From an uncultured Thiotrichales bacterium (lineage in GTDB: Bacteria; Pseudomonadota; Gammaproteobacteria; UBA4575): 64,000 nt of DNA. The stretch lies in assembly GCA_964486815.1 (NCBI GenBank), contig CAZAOO010000011.1:14760-78759 (forward strand). The letters run 5' to 3'. The notes beneath the pieces were generated by a model that searched no databases, was not told where the DNA came from, and saw only the letters and a list, made by a program, of their open reading frames with translations. The stretch's first letter is position 1. Each line of letters opens with the position of its first letter. The position numbers and the translations under genes are program-made. Below are positions 6,908-52,473 of this stretch, one piece after another.

Positions 6908-8452
6908 TTAATTGCTAATGTCATGAATCAATAATGATGCTCCCGTCATAGACTTGGGCTGAGAAATTCCCATTAATTCTAAAATGGTCGGTGCCACCGC
7001 ACTTAGACCTTTGCCATTAGCCAAATTCCAAGCACCATCATCAATCACTAAACAGGGTACCGGGTAAGTCGTGTGTTGGGTGTGAGGTTCTTTGGTGCGC
7101 GGGTCGATCATCTCATCACAATTGCCATGATCTGACGTCAACAACACCGATACGTCTTTCGCTTTTGCAGCATCCAATACGCGCCCAACATGTAGATCGA
7201 GTGCTTCTAATGCCGCGATGATGGCTTCTTTGATTGCCGTATGGCCCACCATATCGGCATTCGCAAAGTTCACCACGATCAGCGCATAATTTTCATTGTT
7301 AATAGCTTTAATGGCTTCATCGGCTACTTCTTCTGCACTCATTTCGGGTTGTAAATCATAGGTGGCTACTTTTGGAGAAGACACCATTTTGCGATCTTCG
7401 CCCTCATAAGCATCTTCATGCCCACCGTTTAAAAAGTAGGTTACGTGAGGATATTTTTCTGTTTCCGCACAGTGAAACTGATGTAAACCATGCTTGGAGA
7501 TTACTTCTGCCAGATTAGTCTCTGGTTTACGTGGTGCAAATATGACTGAGCCAAGATACTCTTTACTATACTTGGTCATTTTAGTGAGTTTGATAGGTTT
7601 ATAACCTGGACCCCGGTCAAAAGCTCTAAACTCATCTTTAGCTAGTGCTTTACTGATTTGACGCGGTCGATCATTACGAAAATTGGTAAAGATTACCTCT
7701 GATTCCGAAGTTAAAGGCAAGGCATTACCCAAAATAGAAGGCTTAATAAATTCATCAGTTTCGCCACGCGTATAAGCCTTATCTATCGCATTCATTGCAT
7801 CCGTGCATTCCTCGCCTTTTAACAGTACTAATGCTTCCCAAGCCTTAAGAGTGCGATCCCATCTACGATCCCGATCCATGGCAAAGTAACGGCCCATTAC
7901 GGTTGCGATGGAACCATTTACGTCAATTAGTGCTTCCTGTAAACGCTTGATATATTTTTTTGCACTTTTTGGTGCCGTGTCGCGACCATCCGTAATGACA
8001 TGTAGCACAGGTCTTATTTGTACTTCACGGCATAACTTAATCAGAGCCAAGGTATGATTAATATGCGAATGAACTCCGCCATCAGACATTAAACCGATAA
8101 TGTGAATATAACCTTCTTTCTTCTTTGCATTTTCCAATGCACGGCGTAGTGCCGACATTTCATAAAAACTTCCATCGGCAATCGCTTCATTAATACGGAT
8201 CAAATCTTGATTAATGATAGCGCCACAGCCAATCGTCATATGGCCTACTTCAGAATTACCCATTTGCCCTGGCGGCAAACCTACCGCTTCGCCTGAAGCC
8301 TCTAATACAGTATGTGGATAATTAGAAAAATATTCATCTAAATTAGGTGTATTTGCTTGCAACACAGCATTATTAGATTTGCTAGGGTTTGTACCAAAGC
8401 CATCGAGAATCAGCAGCAAGGCACGTTTACGTAAAGTTACTTTTTTTTCCAC
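6908..8452 (-). CDS. gpmI: 2,3-bisphosphoglycerate-independent phosphoglycerate mutase
   Basis: 514 aa; LLILDGFG at the N-terminus; an SDHGN catalytic Ser region; iPGM length. Confidence 0.9.
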   Translation of the reverse strand: MEKKVTLRKRALLLILDGFGTNPSKSNNAVLQANTPNLDEYFSNYPHTVLEASGEAVGLPPGQMGNSEVGHMTIGCGAIINQDLIRINEAIADGSFYEMSALRRALENAKKKEGYIHIIGLMSDGGVHSHINHTLALIKLCREVQIRPVLHVITDGRDTAPKSAKKYIKRLQEALIDVNGSIATVMGRYFAMDRDRRWDRTLKAWEALVLLKGEECTDAMNAIDKAYTRGETDEFIKPSILGNALPLTSESEVIFTNFRNDRPRQISKALAKDEFRAFDRGPGYKPIKLTKMTKYSKEYLGSVIFAPRKPETNLAEVISKHGLHQFHCAETEKYPHVTYFLNGGHEDAYEGEDRKMVSSPKVATYDLQPEMSAEEVADEAIKAINNENYALIVVNFANADMVGHTAIKEAIIAALEALDLHVGRVLDAAKAKDVSVLLTSDHGNCDEMIDPRTKEPHTQHTTYPVPCLVIDDGAWNLANGKGLSAVAPTILELMGISQPKSMTGASLLIHDISN

Positions 8453-8500
8453 AATCCAAATCGTTATATTGTTAATACTTTTGGTTTTAATAAATAAAAA

Positions 8501-9382
8501 TCAATCTTTATTTTTATCAGATTCATCTAATAGTTCGTCATCATCTATTTCAATATCATATGCTTGATCACCTTTCCCATGGCTTAAAGCTGAAAAACGT
8601 GGTTCTTGACGTTCAGCACTCTCTATGTCATCTGTACGCTTATTATTGATCATTATGCGCGACATTAATAAACCTAGTTCAAATAAAAGCCATACCGGTA
8701 TAGCTAATAAAAATTGTGAAATGATATCCGGTGGCGTGAGTAACATTCCTATAACAAAAGCACCTACAATTACATATGGACGTTTTGCAGCCAGTTGGTC
8801 AGATGTGGTCACGCCTAATTTAACCAGCACAAAAGTAATGATAGGCACTTCAAATGCTACACCAAAGGCGATAAATATTTTCATCACAAAATCTAGGTAA
8901 CGGCCAATATCGGTCATCACCGCAACCCCTTCAGGTGCGACACGCGTAAAAAATGCAAACATCAAAGGAAAGACAACAAAATACGCAAACGCCATACCGA
9001 CATAAAATAGGATTGAGCTCGATACAATAATCGGTAATGCTAGACGCTTCTCATGGGTGTAGAGACCTGGCGCGATAAATCCCCAGACATGATAAAGAAT
9101 GATGGGTATCGACAATACAATACTCAGTACAAATACTAGTTTAAACGGTGTAAGAAAAGGTGAGGCAACATCAATAGCTACCATTGAGCTGCCTTCCGGC
9201 ATATGCGCCATTAAAGGGCCTGCTAAATATCCATACAGATCATTTGCAAACATAAACAAGCACATAAACACCAACATCACACTGCCGACAATCCATAGTA
9301 GGCGGCTACGCAATTCATAAAGATGCGTTAAAAGTGTTTCGTGTTTTGGATTACTGTCAGAGGTATCGTTAGGGGTTGTCAT
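8501..9382 (-). CDS. tatC: twin-arginine translocase subunit TatC, with an acidic C-terminal extension
   Basis: LTHLYELRSRLLWIV start and six transmembrane helices; follows tatA-tatB. Confidence 0.9.
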   Translation of the reverse strand: MTTPNDTSDSNPKHETLLTHLYELRSRLLWIVGSVMLVFMCLFMFANDLYGYLAGPLMAHMPEGSSMVAIDVASPFLTPFKLVFVLSIVLSIPIILYHVWGFIAPGLYTHEKRLALPIIVSSSILFYVGMAFAYFVVFPLMFAFFTRVAPEGVAVMTDIGRYLDFVMKIFIAFGVAFEVPIITFVLVKLGVTTSDQLAAKRPYVIVGAFVIGMLLTPPDIISQFLLAIPVWLLFELGLLMSRIMINNKRTDDIESAERQEPRFSALSHGKGDQAYDIEIDDDELLDESDKNKD

Positions 9383-45097: not shown

Positions 45098-45868
45098 ATG
45101 CGCATCATCACTGTCAATGTTAACGGTATACGAGCTGCAGCTCGCAAAGGCTTCTTCGATTGGCTAGAAAAACAAAAAGCAGACATCGTCTGTATACAAG
45201 AAACCAAAGCGCAGATTCATCAGCTTGAAGAAAACCCGATCTATTTCCCCAAAGGCTACTTTTGCTATTACGTAGATGCCATAAAAAAAGGCTATAGCGG
45301 TGTAGCGATATACAGCAAGCATGAACCAAAAAAAGTGGTACAAAAATACGGTGATGAAGAATTTGATAATGAAGGGCGTTATTTGGAACTACAATTCGAT
45401 AATCTTGCAGTAGTTTCATTATACGCACCCTCCGGTTCTTCCAGCGAAGAAAGACAAGCAGCCAAATTCCGTTTCATGGAAACTTTTATGAATCATCTGA
45501 AAAGTTTAAAGCGACGCAAAAAGGAATACATAATTTGTGGGGATTGGAATATTGCCCATAAAGAAATCGACTTGAAAAACTGGCGAGGCAATAAGAAAAA
45601 CTCAGGCTTTTTACCTGAAGAACGCGCTTGGTTAGATAACTTATTTGATGATGAAGGCTATATAGATGTATTTAGAGAGATTAATCAAAAAGAAGATCAA
45701 TACACCTGGTGGTCGAACCGCGGACAGGCTTGGGCTAATAATGTTGGTTGGCGTATCGACTACCATATCGCTACACCAAAATTAAAAGCTACCGCCAAAA
45801 AAGTCAGCATCTATAAAGACCAACGCTTTTCTGATCATGCACCCTTGCTAATTGATTACGATCTATAG
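45098..45868 (+). CDS. crc: exonuclease III-fold (EEP) protein, Crc-like catabolite-repression-control homologue
   Basis: ExoIII fold motifs (NVNG, CIQETK, GDWNIAH, SDHAP); divergent from pyrE as crc is in Pseudomonas; KRRKKEYIICG / KNWR / PEERAWLD regions resemble Crc. Confidence 0.55.
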   Translation: MRIITVNVNGIRAAARKGFFDWLEKQKADIVCIQETKAQIHQLEENPIYFPKGYFCYYVDAIKKGYSGVAIYSKHEPKKVVQKYGDEEFDNEGRYLELQFDNLAVVSLYAPSGSSSEERQAAKFRFMETFMNHLKSLKRRKKEYIICGDWNIAHKEIDLKNWRGNKKNSGFLPEERAWLDNLFDDEGYIDVFREINQKEDQYTWWSNRGQAWANNVGWRIDYHIATPKLKATAKKVSIYKDQRFSDHAPLLIDYDL

Positions 45869-45870
45869 AT

Positions 45871-47220
45871 TTGAACACTCACCCCGAAAAAATTTCTTGG
45901 CTTGAAGCGCTGAGTGTTTATAAAGAAAAAAAGGTTTTGGCCATGCTGTTTCTCGGCTTCTCAGCCGGACTGCCACTTGTACTGGTTTTTGGAACCTTAT
46001 CTTACTGGTTGCGCAAAGAAGGTATAGATCGCACTACCATTGGTTACATTTCCTGGATCGCGCTGTTATATGGATTTAAATTCGTTTGGGCGCCATTTGT
46101 TGATCGCTTAAAAATTCCGTTGCTGGAAAAAACTTTTGGTCAACGCAGAAGTTGGATGTTATTGGCTCAAGCTGGAGTCATTATTGGCTTGTGGGCCATA
46201 GCTAGCACAAGTCCTACAGCTGATTTGAGTATGTTAGTTTGGTTTGCATTAATCGTTGCATTTTCATCAGCAACGCAAGATATCAGTATCGATGCCTGGC
46301 GAATTGAATCAGTACCGATTAATCAACAAGGCGCTATGGCCGGCACTTATCAACTTGGTTATCGTATCGGCATGCTATTAGCCGGTGCAGGAGCCTTTTT
46401 CATTGCCGGCAGTTTTTCCTGGAACATCGCCTATGCCACTATGGGTTGCGCAATGTTTATAGGCGTGATCACTACTTTCATCATTAGCGAACCAGCAAAA
46501 ATTATTACTCAAGATACCTGGAAAAACGAACAGCGCGTTATTGATTTTCTGCAAGACTCAACACATTTGCCTGAAGTAATTCGCAAGCCTATAGCCTGGT
46601 TGCTAGGTGCAGTAGTCTGCCCGTTTGTAGATTTTTTTACGCGTAACGGCGCAGCAGCTGCATTAATCATACTTACTTTTATCAGCATTTTTAAAATGAG
46701 CGATATTACTATGGGTGTGATGGCAGGACCGTTTTATGCCGACATGCAATATACCGAGCATCAAATTGCCTGGGCATCAAAAACTTTTGGATTAGTCGTT
46801 ACAATTCTTGGCGCATTGTTTGGAGGGGTACTAGTGATGCGCTATGGAGTAATGCGCATGATGATAGTCTCTGCATTATTGGTGGCGATTACAAATTTAA
46901 TTTTTGCCTGGCTAGCCACACAAAAACCAGAAATGCTTCCACTGGTTTTAGTAATAAGTGCAGATAACTTAAGTGGTGGCATTGCGGGTACCAGTTTTAT
47001 TGCCTACTTATCCAGCTTAACTAACCGTGCTTATACCGCCACTCAATATGCACTGTTTAGTTCCTTCGCTGTACTATTGCCCAAGCTAATCGGTGGATTT
47101 TCCGGCAAAGTGGTTGATTCATATGGATATATCGACTTTTTTATCTATGCTGCCGTTTTAGGCGTGCCGGCAATACTGTTATCGAGCTATCTCTGGTACA
47201 AGCATTACCATCAGGCATAA
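45871..47220 (+). CDS. ampG: AmpG-family MFS permease (muropeptide transporter)
   Basis: LGFSAGLPLVLVFGTLSYWLRKEGID...FKFVWAPFVDR, about 12-14 transmembrane helices. Confidence 0.7.
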   Translation: MNTHPEKISWLEALSVYKEKKVLAMLFLGFSAGLPLVLVFGTLSYWLRKEGIDRTTIGYISWIALLYGFKFVWAPFVDRLKIPLLEKTFGQRRSWMLLAQAGVIIGLWAIASTSPTADLSMLVWFALIVAFSSATQDISIDAWRIESVPINQQGAMAGTYQLGYRIGMLLAGAGAFFIAGSFSWNIAYATMGCAMFIGVITTFIISEPAKIITQDTWKNEQRVIDFLQDSTHLPEVIRKPIAWLLGAVVCPFVDFFTRNGAAAALIILTFISIFKMSDITMGVMAGPFYADMQYTEHQIAWASKTFGLVVTILGALFGGVLVMRYGVMRMMIVSALLVAITNLIFAWLATQKPEMLPLVLVISADNLSGGIAGTSFIAYLSSLTNRAYTATQYALFSSFAVLLPKLIGGFSGKVVDSYGYIDFFIYAAVLGVPAILLSSYLWYKHYHQA

Positions 47221-47301
47221 TAATCAAGAAACTCTAATGTTTTTGAACAAAGCAAATGAGTCTGGGTCGAAATCAATAATAATATTCCTCGGGAGTCGGT
47301 T

Positions 47302-48042
47302 ATGAATTATAAATTTAAATGGTTAACTATTGCGTTTTTTACAGTTTTGCTAACAGGAAATTTACAAGCAGGCTGGCTAGATAAGGCTAAAGATTTATTA
47401 AATGAATCTGGCGTTAGCACTTCAACATCCGCAAGCAATCTAACGGATGGCGAAATTACTTCCGGCCTTAAAGAAGCGTTAAGTGTAGGCTCCGACTTAG
47501 TCGTAAATCAACTCGGTGTTAGTAATGGCTTTAATGCTGATCCAAATATTCGTATTCCACTGCCCAATAGCTTGAAGAAAGTACAGTCCACCCTGGAAAA
47601 GGTCGGCATGAGCGGAATGCTGGATGATTTGGAAATACGCTTAAATAGAGCAGCAGAAATTGCAACGCCAAAAGCCAAAGAATTATTCAAAAATGCCATC
47701 TCTGCGATGACATTAGATGATGCTCGCAACATCCTGACTGGTGAAAACGATGCAGCCACACGTTACTTTCAAGCAAAAATGACTCCTGATCTAGTTACTG
47801 AATTCACGCCTATAGTAAATGACAGTCTTGCTGAGGCAGGTGCTATAAAAAGTTATGATAATGCAATTGGGCAATATAAAAAACTTCCTTTAGTTCCTGA
47901 TGCAAAAGCAGATTTAAGTAGTTATGTAGTAGAAAAAGGTATGGATGGAATCTTCCATTATCTTGCAGTTGAAGAAGCAAAAATCAGAACCAATCCTGTT
48001 GCGCGCACAACAGATTTATTAAAAAAAGTATTTGCTAAATAA
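47302..48042 (+). CDS. DUF4197-family periplasmic protein
   Basis: Signal peptide plus ITSGLKEALSVG motif. Confidence 0.5.
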   Translation: MNYKFKWLTIAFFTVLLTGNLQAGWLDKAKDLLNESGVSTSTSASNLTDGEITSGLKEALSVGSDLVVNQLGVSNGFNADPNIRIPLPNSLKKVQSTLEKVGMSGMLDDLEIRLNRAAEIATPKAKELFKNAISAMTLDDARNILTGENDAATRYFQAKMTPDLVTEFTPIVNDSLAEAGAIKSYDNAIGQYKKLPLVPDAKADLSSYVVEKGMDGIFHYLAVEEAKIRTNPVARTTDLLKKVFAK

Positions 48043-48061
48043 TTTACTAATATGCAAGTCA

Positions 48062-49069
48062 TCAGCTTTCAATAAAATTAATCTCATTAAAAAGTTTTTT
48101 AAGTTTTAAGCCCTTATTTACATTCAAGCGAGCAACATGATTTATTTTACCCAATAGGTGTTCTTTATAGTTTATATGGTTATTTATATTTTGGCTTAAA
48201 GGGCCAAAGCGAATACAATTATATAGTGTCGCTTTTAGTTTATCGTAATAACGACGATCAATATTCGTAAAACGATTTACCACAAGACCTGTAATTTTTT
48301 GCGCTCTGCTCTGTGTCATTATTCGGCTTTTATGGTGATTTAGTATAAAACCCTCTTCATAGCAAATTGATCAAACCACTGTTTCTAAAAATCTCCAATC
48401 CCGTTCATGATTACTAGAAAATGAAAGATCATCAGCATATCTTGAATAACTTAAATTTAAGCTTTTAGCTAGGCCAAAAAGACGGCAATCTAATACTCTT
48501 GTAACAGCATTAGCAATAGCTGGAGATGTGGGTGATCCCTGCGGCAAATGCCGCTTTGATAACAAATTTATTTGCTTTTCGTCAATGCACGGCTGGTGTA
48601 ATCTTTCACTATTACAAGTGTGAGTACTCAGGCCGCAAAGTATTTGAGCAACTTTTCCCTCATATCCAATATATCGATAAAATCGATATACTTTTTGCCA
48701 ACTAATTGACTGAAAGTAATTTTCAATATCGAAACAAATTACATATTTTTTATTTGTATGTATATCTGCATGCTTAATGCAATCTAATTGTTTTCTAAAC
48801 CCCATTGCAGCATCGTGGATTGCAGCATATACGACAATCTGGTCTAGAATTTTTCTTTGAATTACTTTTAAATTTACTTTTGGTGCCTCTATTACTCGGG
48901 TTCTAGTTCTCTTTTTCTCTTGCGTAAAATAATTGTAGTGAAGTAATTTTTTTGCCCTAAGTTTTGAAGAACGCCATAGGTCTGCATGCCAATTCAATTC
49001 GTTAGGATTCAAACCCAACCATACTGCTAAATCACTCTTGTTATCTAGTTTTGGTAAATTTGGGCGCAA
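48062..49069 (-). pseudogene. retron-type reverse transcriptase interrupted by one in-frame TGA (codons 48371-48373); all other RT motifs intact
   Basis: Upstream ORF carries RT motifs HDAAMGF, FDIENYFQSI, LPQGSPTSPAIANAV and YSRYADD. Downstream ORF carries the retron-type KITGLVVN (VTG) region. (49069-48319) is divisible by 3, so both ORFs share one frame separated by TGA plus 17 sense codons. Confidence 0.7.
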
Positions 49070-49500
49070 TAATTCTGAGCTTTTTATACGCTCCAGATTA
49101 ATAGAAATGACCAGTGGTTTTATCCTATAATATTTAAACCAATTTTTAATAAAGATGAATCACATCTGCAATATCATCTGGTAAGTCTTTTGTAACTAAA
49201 ATACAAGCTGATAACAGAGTACTGTAATACCATTTACTAGAATATAGATGTTCGCTGAGATGCTTTACGAAAAGCTGTTGGCTTACGTTTGTCATTTCAC
49301 ACTTTATTGATAGAATTTAGTGGCACCCAACCCCTAACAACGCGTGTACATGATTGCATATGATGCAACGTCGTACATGCAACGAAATGTCAACAAATCA
49401 TTACCTTGGGGTTACCCAAAGCCCCTAATTTTAGGGAAATGCTTGAATGCCTTATAAACATAGCTAGCACATATTAAAAGGTCAATGATGAATTAAGTTT
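49070..49500 (-). ncRNA. candidate retron msr/msd non-coding region upstream of the RT (repeat- and palindrome-rich)
   Basis: 430 bp with no ORF. Direct repeat acccaa(ag)cccctaa at about 49325-49337 and 49414-49428; palindromes ttgcat-atg-atgcaa at about 49354-49368 and ccctaa-tt-ttaggg at about 49422-49435; repeated atgcaacg and gtacatg units. Confidence 0.3.
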
Positions 49501-50043
49501 TTATGGAATAATTTCTATTGGGGTGCCGTCTTCCACCGCATTCCAAATTTCGTCCATTTCATGATTCTGAACCGCGATACAACCTTCGGTCCAATCGTCT
49601 TCTTTGAATAGCAGTTTGGTTTTTTCAACCCAACTGCTTGGTTGGCCATGAATCATGATCGCACCACCCGGAGTATCACCACGTTCACGAGCATTGCGGT
49701 GATCAGACTTACTCGGGTATGAGACGTGAATCGATCGATAGAACTTACTATTCGGGTTACGCCAATCTAAGGTGTATAAACCTTCTGGGGTGCGTGAATC
49801 ACCTTCGCGTGACTTATGTCCGTCAGGCTGTTTGCCAAGAGCAATTCTATAGGTTTTTAAAACTTCGCTGCCACGATAAAGATATAACTTGCGTTCAGAC
49901 TTTTTAACCACAACATAGTCAGCCTTATCAATAAGGGTTGCATCGGTGGATGCGGTTACCATGCTATTCAATAAAATCGATATGCAGTACAACACGCTAA
50001 TAAGAATTTTGATAATATTTCGCGCTTTTAAAAAAAATTTCAC
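49501..50043 (-). CDS. L,D-transpeptidase (YkuD domain), secreted
   Basis: Signal peptide plus catalytic HGQP...GCIAV motif. Confidence 0.8.
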   Translation of the reverse strand: MKFFLKARNIIKILISVLYCISILLNSMVTASTDATLIDKADYVVVKKSERKLYLYRGSEVLKTYRIALGKQPDGHKSREGDSRTPEGLYTLDWRNPNSKFYRSIHVSYPSKSDHRNARERGDTPGGAIMIHGQPSSWVEKTKLLFKEDDWTEGCIAVQNHEMDEIWNAVEDGTPIEIIP

Positions 50044-50111
50044 GGTTACACTCTCTAGTTATATACATGGTACAGAAAGCGTGGCAAGACTATATTGCCT
50101 ACCGTTTTATT

Positions 50112-50750
50112 CTACGGCTGACTGCGCTTACTTTTCACCCATTTTATGATGGGCTCCCACATTTCACGGTCAAGCTCGGTAGCACCAGGTGCCATCTCAA
50201 AAATGCCTAGGCCACGTTCTGCGGCTTTAATGTAGTTCTGACTATCTCGCAACATGGTTAAAAAAGGAATGCGTTGTTTGCTCAGCAAGTCATCCAACTC
50301 CCAATAAATATTAGTGTAGTCGCGTGAACGGTTTGCAATCAGTGCAAGTTTGGCTTTTTTGTTTTGTACAGGTGATGATTTCTTAATTTCGGCAATAAAG
50401 TCGGTAACTGCACGCATATCGATTGGCGAAGGTAATACCGGGATTAAAATAGTTTCTGCTTTATTCAGCATTTTACTTAAGTTGCCGCCATGCATGCCTG
50501 CAGGGGCATCATGAATCACAAAATCGGTGTTTCGGCTGGGGCGCTTGGCACTTTTTTTGAATGCCGCTATGCCTTCAATCGGCGAACGAGCAGAAGAACG
50601 TGCCGCTAGCCATGCCATGCTACTGCCTTGCTGATCATAATCCATCATCACCACTTTTTTATTTTGCGAAACAAAATATGAAGCCAAATTAGTTGCCACA
50701 GTGGATTTTCCAGAGCCACCCTTTGAATTAATCACCATAATGTTGCGCAT
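50112..50750 (-). CDS. ParA/MinD-family P-loop ATPase (orphan)
   Basis: MVINSKGGSGKST deviant Walker A; 212 aa. Confidence 0.75.
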   Translation of the reverse strand: MRNIMVINSKGGSGKSTVATNLASYFVSQNKKVVMMDYDQQGSSMAWLAARSSARSPIEGIAAFKKSAKRPSRNTDFVIHDAPAGMHGGNLSKMLNKAETILIPVLPSPIDMRAVTDFIAEIKKSSPVQNKKAKLALIANRSRDYTNIYWELDDLLSKQRIPFLTMLRDSQNYIKAAERGLGIFEMAPGATELDREMWEPIIKWVKSKRSQP

Positions 50751-51040
50751 TTTTTAAACACCTCACGTATGTAGATTGGTAGATGAAGTTTGTCTTAACT
50801 GCGCCTACATTCCAAGTGTAATTACCAATGCAATTACCGAGCTCAATTAACTCTTGCTGCATACTAAATGCCTGAAGCATACATCTTCAGCTTTTCATGC
50901 TAATTTGAAGCCTTAATCTAGGGGTCAAATAACGATGAGAATTAGAGCATTAGATTGTAGTGACAACTTCGATTATGCTGCCGTTATATTTATATTTTAT
51001 GGATTTTCAAGAAAGTTAGCTGCAAATCAAAGAATGATGT

Positions 51041-51805
51041 CTACATAAACTCGGCTATTACTGGAGCATGATCTGACGGCCTTTCGTTACTCCTGGGGGC
51101 TTTATCCACCACACTGAAGTTACAACTCGCTTCCATGGAGGTGCTAGCAAGGATGAGATCAATCCTTAAACCAAGGTTTCTAGGAAAGCCACCCGCTCGA
51201 TAATCCCACCAGCTAAAGGTGTTTTCTTCCTGGTCAAATAACCTAAATGTATCAACAAAACCTAAATCCGTGATGTTCTTAAGAGCTGCACGCTCTTTAC
51301 TGCTGCATAAGATTTTATCTTTCCAGGCAATCGGATCATGTACGTCTATGTCCTCAGGGGCAATATTAAAATCACCCAATACCACATAATTTGAGTATTT
51401 TTTAAGCTCATTTTTAATAAAGGCGGTTACTTTTTCTAGCCAATCTAATTTGTAATCAAATTTATCTGAGCCCACTGCTTTCCCGTTCACTACATATAGA
51501 TTCAAGACACGTACATCGTCTACGGTAACCGCGAGTATTCTGCGTTGCGGATCATCCAAGCCTTTTACATCTTTAACAACATCACTTGCCTCAAGTTTGG
51601 AAAGCACTGCTACACCGTTATAGGTCTTTTGGCCCGAGTACTGAACTTGATAACCGGCTTGCTGAATTTCATCTACTGGAAAATCTTCATCCACCATTTT
51701 GGTTTCTTGTAGAGCAAGCACATCAACCTGATTGTCTTCGAGCCACTCCAATACTTGCGGTAATCGAACTCTTAATGAATTAACGTTCCAAGAAGCAATT
51801 TTCAT
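51041..51805 (-). CDS. xthA: exodeoxyribonuclease III
   Basis: WNVNS, LALQETK, VLGDFNIAPEDID, SDHAPVIAEF; all catalytic motifs present. Confidence 0.85.
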   Translation of the reverse strand: MKIASWNVNSLRVRLPQVLEWLEDNQVDVLALQETKMVDEDFPVDEIQQAGYQVQYSGQKTYNGVAVLSKLEASDVVKDVKGLDDPQRRILAVTVDDVRVLNLYVVNGKAVGSDKFDYKLDWLEKVTAFIKNELKKYSNYVVLGDFNIAPEDIDVHDPIAWKDKILCSSKERAALKNITDLGFVDTFRLFDQEENTFSWWDYRAGGFPRNLGLRIDLILASTSMEASCNFSVVDKAPRSNERPSDHAPVIAEFM

Positions 51806-51828
51806 AATAGTTAAGCTTTTTAATTAAC

Positions 51829-52473
51829 TCACAAGCGAAAACCATGCAGTCTTTTTTTCATTCGCCAGGAAGAAACCTTTAGCCCGAACAAAAAGCTAAC
51901 CAGCAAAAATACAGCCCCCAGTCCTAGCGACCATTTATTTAATTCCAGTATTATTATAGGTTTGTTGCCTTGATTGTCAGCTGTCACTGATGTAGACGAC
52001 CCAATTTGCGAAACATTTTTGTCGGCTAATTGTTTTTGTAATGTTTGATTGTTTTCTTGTAACGAAGATAGCTCTGCCTGTAGTTCCGTAACTTGGACAT
52101 TTGCAGCCTCACTAGATGAACTAGCACTATTCGACTGTGCCTCATTTCTTAGCTTTACAAGCTCCGCCTCTAGCTGTTTGTTGTTCTCGCTAACAGAAAA
52201 ATAAAGTAGTTTTGCGGGTGGGTCTTCTACCAGGAATGCCGATTTAACCCAACCAACTGTGACGTCATTGGTTGTTACCTGGGTAAAACCACCTTCAGTA
52301 GCAAAAACTTCAACGGAGTCGCCACTATTTATTGTCTGTAAAAGTTCACTATCCGCACTGGCGCTTGAATAAATGCGTAGCTGCAATGAGTCGGTTACAT
52401 ATGCAAATTCTTGTGCATGTAAAGACGCACTAAAAATTACAAAGTAAATGAAAATGTAAAAAGAATTTTTCAT
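51829..52473 (-). CDS. SH3-domain membrane-anchored protein (YgiM/TIGR04211-like)
   Basis: Signal peptide, SH3b-like region, coiled coil and a C-terminal transmembrane helix. Confidence 0.5.
   Translation of the reverse strand: MKNSFYIFIYFVIFSASLHAQEFAYVTDSLQLRIYSSASADSELLQTINSGDSVEVFATEGGFTQVTTNDVTVGWVKSAFLVEDPPAKLLYFSVSENNKQLEAELVKLRNEAQSNSASSSSEAANVQVTELQAELSSLQENNQTLQKQLADKNVSQIGSSTSVTADNQGNKPIIILELNKWSLGLGAVFLLVSFLFGLKVSSWRMKKRLHGFRL

Follow-up and report, generated by a model that had tools for sequence, protein, structure and literature searches.

Stand-alone retrons, in which the cassette consists of (msr-msd)-RT only, that is, a noncoding RNA (ncRNA) and a reverse transcriptase (RT), were described in RT clade 11 by Mestre et al. 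in 2020 (PMC7736814). A 2026 survey (bioRxiv 10.64898/2026.05.14.725207) places clade11-A in Pseudomonadota, Actinomycetota, and Acidobacteriota and assigns it two known ncRNA families but no accessory module. The orphan Ec107-like retrons, a branch of clade 2, are also found without an adjacent effector (PMC7736814). Type XIII retrons are defined by SWIM/winged-helix and HEAT/ARM partners and, like the lineage treated here, are often chromosomal and not located in defence islands (PMC7736814). The element in question lies in a stretch of 64,000 nucleotides (nt) from an uncultured Thiotrichales bacterium (assembly GCA_964486815.1, contig CAZAOO010000011.1, positions 14,760 to 78,759), hereafter the window. 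Its minus strand very probably carries, at 48062-49485, a recently dead stand-alone retron cassette with a promoter, an ncRNA, and an RT gene that has been inactivated twice, and with no effector. The RT belongs to a lineage whose intact members carry a helical N-terminal domain of ~100 residues. This retron lineage is already catalogued, and what is added here is the second lesion in the RT gene, the ncRNA, the finding that no effector accompanies them, and evidence from synteny. The anatomy of the cassette, its two lesions, and the conservation and covariation of its ncRNA can be read from the sequences themselves.

A sequence-only reading of the window had joined two minus-strand open reading frames (ORFs), 48371-49069 (232 aa, TTG start) and 48062-48319 (85 aa, encoding the thumb), into one retron-type RT, on the grounds that they share a frame and are split only by a TGA and 17 sense codons. 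This arrangement is correct. The 17 codons between the TGA (48371-48373) and the ATG at 48319 encode SICYEEGFILNHHKSRI, and the joined 335 codons contain every motif that had been listed: HDAAMGF, FDIENYFQSI, LPQGSPTSPAIANAV, YSRYADD, and KITGLVVN. The 232-aa ORF is the portion of the RT gene that follows its first TTG. The middle of the gene (48374-49153, minus strand) encodes the remaining N-terminal region, fingers, and palm, including region X (KHADIH) and the catalytic YADD, and the 3′ part (48062-48370, minus strand; stop codon 48062-48064) completes the palm and encodes the thumb; region Y (KITGLVVN) and the conserved C-terminal helices lie here. The alignment of P0002, the closest intact homologue, to this 3′ part extends through P0002 residue 424.

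The identification as a retron RT also stands, as retron RT models and structures are the best matches and an msr-msd ncRNA is located directly upstream. The joined 335 codons match Pfam RVT_1 at E=2.4e-25 and the PADLOC models RT_other at 5e-109 (364 bits), RT_outgroup at 8e-105 (349 bits), and RT_XIII at 1e-86 (290 bits), so that by sequence comparison the RT match is far above chance level. Retron models were the best in profile searches covering the retron, group II intron, and UG/Abi families, and the top 25 PADLOC matches are all retron RTs, those three being followed by 22 further models. Matches to the NCBIfam retron models fall under their cut-offs. As recognition features of retron RTs we used the catalytic YxDD, region X (NAxxH, with the H most conserved), and region Y (VTG, with the G most conserved). 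YxDD is found as YSRYADD. Region X has the family consensus THAxxH, in which the N is substituted and the A and the terminal H are retained, the latter being invariant over 95 sequences. Region Y reads KITG, and its G is invariant.

Structural comparisons agree with this assignment. Sequence matches in the PDB at E <= 1e-8 are all retron RTs (Ec86, Ec78, St85, Ec67, Ec83, Kva2, and Eco8), and a group II maturase appears only at 3e-05. The AlphaFold2 (AF2) model of P0002 has a mean confidence (pLDDT) of 94.6, and in Foldseek retron RTs fill its top 18 places, with group II, DRT2, DGR, and Abi RTs ranking lower. The Ec86 fold is matched with a template modelling (TM) score of 0.80-0.82 normalised to Ec86 and a Foldseek E of 1.7e-20. 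By sequence and by predicted fold, the window RT is thus a retron RT.

The gene had been described as complete except for one in-frame TGA, which is wrong. A search of 5.8 billion protein clusters retrieved 3,518 relatives, the best intact ones being 420-448 aa long and exceeding the 335-codon reading by ~100 N-terminal residues. PADLOC profiles leave 80-145 of their N-terminal positions without a match in that reading, while intact homologues align to RT_outgroup end to end (profile positions 8-407 of 407). The missing N terminus begins further upstream, in a 49-aa ORF (49146-49295, minus strand) that starts at the original ATG (49295), encodes MTNVSQQLFVKHLSEHLYSSKWYYSTLLSACILVTKDLPDDIADVIHLY, roughly the first 45 residues of the N-terminal helical domain, and ends at a TAA because of a change of frame downstream. 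In a tblastn alignment, residues 3-42 of P0002 match 49277-49158 at 48% identity and residues 67-424 match 49153-48074 in a different frame. Between the two blocks, 4 nt of the window (49154-49157) stand in place of 24 residues of the homologue. The first lesion is therefore an out-of-frame deletion of ~68 nt (~24 codons, P0002 residues 43-66) that shifts the frame by +1. In the AF2 model, the N-terminal domain of P0002 is a five-helix bundle, of which the deleted segment comprises the end of helix 3, helix 4, and the start of helix 5. This bundle has no structural relatives.

The second lesion, the in-frame TGA at 48371-48373, falls on the Gly of an LVGSIC motif conserved among the closest relatives. 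The codon at this position is GGN in the two relatives where it is readable (L003 and L004). From the alignment, the TGA is best read as a conserved Gly codon turned into a stop by nonsense mutation, for which a single G-to-T change of GGA would suffice. Recent nonsense mutation, sequencing error, and programmed readthrough had all been offered as its cause. The first fits the conserved Gly codon, the second is contradicted by independent sequencing runs, and readthrough is unlikely because TGA is a normal stop here and because the upstream frameshift would stay unrepaired. That TGA is an ordinary stop in the source genome is seen from TGA-terminated genes whose products match the lengths of their orthologues in a related genome (214 vs 215 aa and 305 vs 302 aa), and genetic codes 4 and 25, in which TGA is a sense codon, were rejected for this reason. 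Another same-frame ORF pair joined by a TGA, at 6908-9382 (minus strand), consists only of the unrelated genes for TatC (293 aa, TGA stop) and phosphoglycerate mutase (514 aa), whose shared frame imitates a TGA-interrupted gene.

Both lesions recur in other assemblies. The 232-aa and 85-aa ORFs are recorded in NCBI, ENA, and Logan assemblies. One Logan contig (L082, from SRR3310984) spans both lesions and the ncRNA and differs from the window by one mismatch and no gap over 6,494 nt, and another (L083, from SRR3311162) spans the TGA and is identical to the window over 2,452 nt. Two assemblies thus contain the deletion and three the TGA, and this recurrence in independent sequencing runs means that sequencing error explains neither lesion. 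The mismatch of L082 is a K-to-M change within the 232-aa ORF, and as this variant has the same stop, at least two strain variants share the TGA. No intact near-identical allele was found among the 5.8 billion protein clusters, where the next match is 52% identical. With the gene broken twice, no full-length RT can be made from the window locus, which marks the element as a recently dead retron.

The feature that makes the locus a retron is an msr-msd ncRNA of ~130 nt, overlooked in the sequence-only reading, at 49322-49451 on the minus strand, 26 nt upstream of the original ATG. Reading 5′ to 3′ on this strand, it contains a1 (49451-49443), an unpaired G that is the putative branch point (49442), msr hairpin 1 (49436-49423), the conserved msr hairpin 2 (49422-49403), a weak hairpin (49402-49381), the msd stem-loop (49380-49342), an opposing unpaired G (49331), and a2 (49330-49322). 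The unpaired G straight after a1 (...CAA-G-C...) faces the one straight before a2 (...G-TTGG...). All elements expected of a retron ncRNA, namely a1/a2, the opposing G pair, the msr hairpins, and the msd stem-loop, are thus found, and the ncRNA of the window and its family agrees with the canonical msr-msd architecture described by Mestre et al. (PMC7736814). The minimum free energy fold of the 133-nt stretch 49320-49452 has this same architecture, with a ΔG of -49.9 kcal/mol and a z of -4.78, which none of 200 shuffles reached.

Conservation of this structure extends well beyond the window. The 205-nt spacer upstream of the ATG at 49295 aligns with the spacers upstream of the RTs of the four closest genomic relatives (L001-L004), which are only 45-52% identical in their RTs. 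Across these relatives, the 5′ arm GGCAYYCAA covaries with the 3′ arm TTGRGTGCC through compensatory changes in a1 and a2. In 59 of 81 related loci, a covariance model built from the five spacers (the window and L001-L004) matched the RT strand immediately 5′ of the RT ORF at E<=0.01, and ~15 more loci gave weaker, mostly partial matches (E 0.01-1). These matches span Gammaproteobacteria, Burkholderiales, Planctomycetota, Acidobacteriota, Actinomycetota, Myxococcota, and Verrucomicrobiota. Of the 29 pairs in the consensus structure of a 40-sequence alignment, 25 show compensatory double changes, and 93.7% of cells are paired vs 36-53% when the partners are slid. The covariation score is 0.457 vs 0.06-0.10 in the slid controls, and the observed values were reached by none of 500 shuffles. 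The msr hairpins include the nearly invariant UCUCYGGGGYUACCCCRGGG. Hairpin 2 of the window (49403-49422) reads GGG where 38 of the 40 relatives have GGGG, and still pairs over 8 bp around a loop of 4 nt; the shorter G run may be a neutral variant or an early mark of decay in the ncRNA. Rfam returned no match at a permissive E-value over 46000-52000 or at the gathering threshold over the whole window, in which ARAGORN found no tRNA or tmRNA.

A consensus scan located a sigma-70-like promoter at 49457-49485 (minus strand), with a -35 box TTGACC (49485-49480), a 17-nt spacer, and a -10 box TATGTT (49462-49457), ending 5 nt before a1. By eye, TTGAYY-17-TAYNNT occurs at an equal distance from a1 in the alignment of L001-L004. 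Promoter-like sites are not enriched over shuffles in this region, and the promoter function is putative. In two gammaproteobacterial relatives, a2 runs directly into five or six T residues (L003:5630-5643 and L004:5670-5683), and the a1/a2 stem followed by this U-run resembles an intrinsic terminator between ncRNA and RT ORF; it is not seen in the window.

The cassette had been labelled a defence RT in an otherwise housekeeping neighbourhood, of which the second part is borne out. Its neighbours are YkuD-family, ParA-like, exonuclease III-family, DUF4197, AmpG-like MFS permease, and PyrE genes, and in relatives the RT is immediately flanked by unrelated housekeeping genes, as in RNase R-RlmB-[RT]-RpsF and M24 peptidase-[RT]-amidohydrolase. 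The defence label is without support, as no conserved effector gene was found at the window locus or at the 81 related loci. In all-against-all clustering of ORFs, no neighbour family was common to more than ~10 of the 81 loci, apart from spurious ORFs, which in GC-rich genomes overlap the RT in another frame or on the opposite strand and make up the only recurrent "families". Candidate effectors, a 425-aa gene upstream in Exilibacterium and a 418-aa gene in Granulosicoccus, were rejected as unrelated, the latter being an M24 peptidase. At the window locus there is neither a co-located effector gene nor a fused effector domain, of which one or the other would be expected in a tripartite defence retron. 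With no conserved neighbour gene, the window element is a stand-alone retron that lacks an effector. Two exonuclease III-family (Exo_endo_phos) paralogues lie 3-5 kb on either side of the cassette, at 45098-45868 (plus strand, 256 aa) and 51041-51805 (minus strand, 254 aa). Both are conserved in the syntenic contig L084 and are therefore not part of the cassette.

L084 (ENA ERZ25072999 ctg319396, 437 kb), from a related gammaproteobacterial genome, also shows the extent of the cassette. It aligns to the window at 50819-49505 and at 48041-41891 with 71-79% nt identity, and the loss of synteny between these blocks bounds a cassette of 1,463 bp (48042-49504). Between the syntenic YkuD-family and DUF4197 genes, L084 has no trace of an RT or ncRNA; this slot (L084:9233-10524) is occupied by a globin-like gene (135 aa) and an unannotated gene (202 aa). 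In this lineage, it seems to be a small region of variable content. The GC content of the cassette is 33.8% vs 40.3 ± 2.1% for 1.4-kb windows, placing it in the lowest 0.6%. Together, the synteny break and the low GC indicate a lineage-specific acquisition. A scan of genome contigs found no close orthologue, the best match being 47% identical. Apart from the two lesions, the window RT differs at 4 of 74 highly conserved columns, each time conservatively, whereas intact members differ at 0-9. With so few further changes, the inactivation looks recent, and the sequence comparisons point to a cassette that was gained by the lineage and then decayed recently.

According to the established retron mechanism, transcription would start from the promoter at 49485-49457. 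In intact relatives, the transcript would fold with a1 paired to a2, the RT thumb (region Y) would bind the msr hairpins, and the 2′-OH of the unpaired G located 3′ of a1 (G49442 in the window) would prime reverse transcription of the msd stem-loop, yielding msDNA, a branched RNA-DNA molecule whose DNA part would be ~50-65 nt long. In the window copy, a ribosome would halt after 49 codons, and any product begun at the TTG at 49069 would be devoid of the N-terminal domain and the thumb, which the Gly-to-TGA mutation separates from the palm. By analogy with known retrons, msDNA is not expected from this copy, as the RT ORF is broken twice. The ncRNA still looks intact in sequence.

Several observations weigh against a recently dead cassette. 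The three assemblies may sample one population, and the lesions, while real, could then be polymorphic. The lack of additional decay is equally expected of a recoded gene that still functions. An RT from another copy beyond the 64-kb window could, in principle, act in trans. Msr hairpin 2, the most conserved one, is one G shorter than in 38 of 40 relatives. Moreover, a function for the ncRNA and the choice of branching G are assigned by analogy. The ncRNA and promoter may persist for an RT-independent role, either serving an RT elsewhere or as a regulatory RNA, or the lineage may be a domesticated one with a non-defence function, or the gene may be doubly recoded; taken together, we consider such readings unlikely. 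If the lineage does have a non-defence cellular role, it would be losable in some lineages without cost.

Recoding on its own, by a +1 frameshift near 49155 and UGA readthrough at 48371-48373, would leave the gene functional and fits the undegraded remainder of the coding sequence, the intact appearance of ncRNA and promoter, and lesions that appear fixed in every assembly seen. Yet it requires two independent recoding events and, even so, ~24 residues of a well-folded helical bundle would be missing. By eye, the junction has no slippery heptamer or prfB-like CUU-UGA site. UGA followed by U is a strong termination context in E. coli, and the UGA of the window is followed by U. Given also that none of the ~120 homologues listed needs recoding and that TGA is a normal stop in the source genome, this explanation is very unlikely.

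Slightly less credible again is a split enzyme, in which the 232-aa fingers and palm and the 85-aa thumb assemble in trans and the N-terminal domain is dispensable. Public annotations do call both ORFs as genes, and the ATG at 48319 is just upstream of the thumb. By eye, however, no Shine-Dalgarno-like sequence precedes the TTG at 49069 or the ATG at 48319, the 17 codons between TGA and ATG encode a conserved SICxEEGF strand that would be lost, and the protein-cluster search found no split architecture in any relative.

As the source is a metagenome-assembled contig, in which consensus errors are possible, the stop and the frameshift might be artefacts of sequencing or assembly that hide an intact gene. 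This is still more improbable given the gap-free repetition of the locus in the assemblies of two runs (one mismatch in 6,494 nt and none in 2,452 nt), a G-to-T substitution and a 68-nt deletion being untypical of homopolymer errors, and the lack of an intact near-identical protein in the clusters searched.

The least probable reading, which we regard as next to negligible, is a non-retron RT (group II maturase, DGR, or Abi/UG/DRT) or a type XIII retron with its partners elsewhere, since the weak matches to the group II model TIGR04416 (53 bits) and to Drt2 (34 bits) are far below the respective cut-offs (300 and 390), the 25 best PADLOC matches include no DRT, UG, or Abi model, Rfam finds neither an intron nor another RNA family, a retron-type ncRNA is present, and RT_XIII, although the third-best model and one whose RTs likewise have N-terminal extensions, leaves intact relatives unaligned up to about residue 95 and falls ~130-180 bits short of RT_other (292-348 vs 420-525 bits), with no SWIM/winged-helix or HEAT/ARM partner conserved beside any of the 81 loci.

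Taking the locus as a recently dead stand-alone retron, the two annotated "hypothetical" or "RVT_1" ORFs and the 49-aa ORF should be combined into a single RT pseudogene, with a retron ncRNA annotated at 49322-49451. The locus is a further example of an effector-less retron amid housekeeping genes and illustrates the gain of a cassette in a variable chromosomal slot and its subsequent decay. While the window element alone opens no new question, studies of this orphan lineage could draw on the ncRNA model, which is supported by covariation, and on the N-terminal domain structure, predicted with high confidence.

Among retrons with solved structures, Retron-Eco1 (Ec86; PDB 7v9u, 7v9x) is the best match to the RT core of the family and follows the same logic of a1/a2, branching G, and msd stem-loop. 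Its RT is only ~26% identical, lacks the ~100-aa N-terminal helical bundle, and works with an NDT-type effector (type II-A). The Ec107-like retrons belong to another RT clade (PADLOC RT_Ec107-like reaches only 4e-53 for the window RT), and their RTs also lack the N-terminal domain. Type XIII (RT clade 10: Mx162, Mx65, Sa163, and Ne144) provides the next-closest typed RT model, and its RTs are likewise longer at the N-terminus than those of E. coli retrons, but, as the RT_XIII alignment indicates, the N-terminal domain is not common to both. No winged-helix/SWIM Zn-finger or HEAT/ARM-repeat partner was found beside the window cassette or conserved at the loci of the 81 relatives, and identity with type XIII was rejected on the lower RT_XIII score and the absence of these partners. 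Clade 11 cassettes ("clade11-A/B"; RT_other and RT_outgroup in PADLOC-DB) are alike in having a retron RT, an upstream msr-msd, and no recurrent accessory gene, and the intact relatives match RT_outgroup over its entire length, N-terminal domain included. The taxon spread of clade11-A agrees as well, the relatives found here being from Pseudomonadota, Actinomycetota, and Acidobacteriota, and additionally from Planctomycetota. From the RT_other and RT_outgroup matches and this spread, the lineage is probably clade 11 of Mestre et al., from which the window copy differs in having been inactivated by two lesions.
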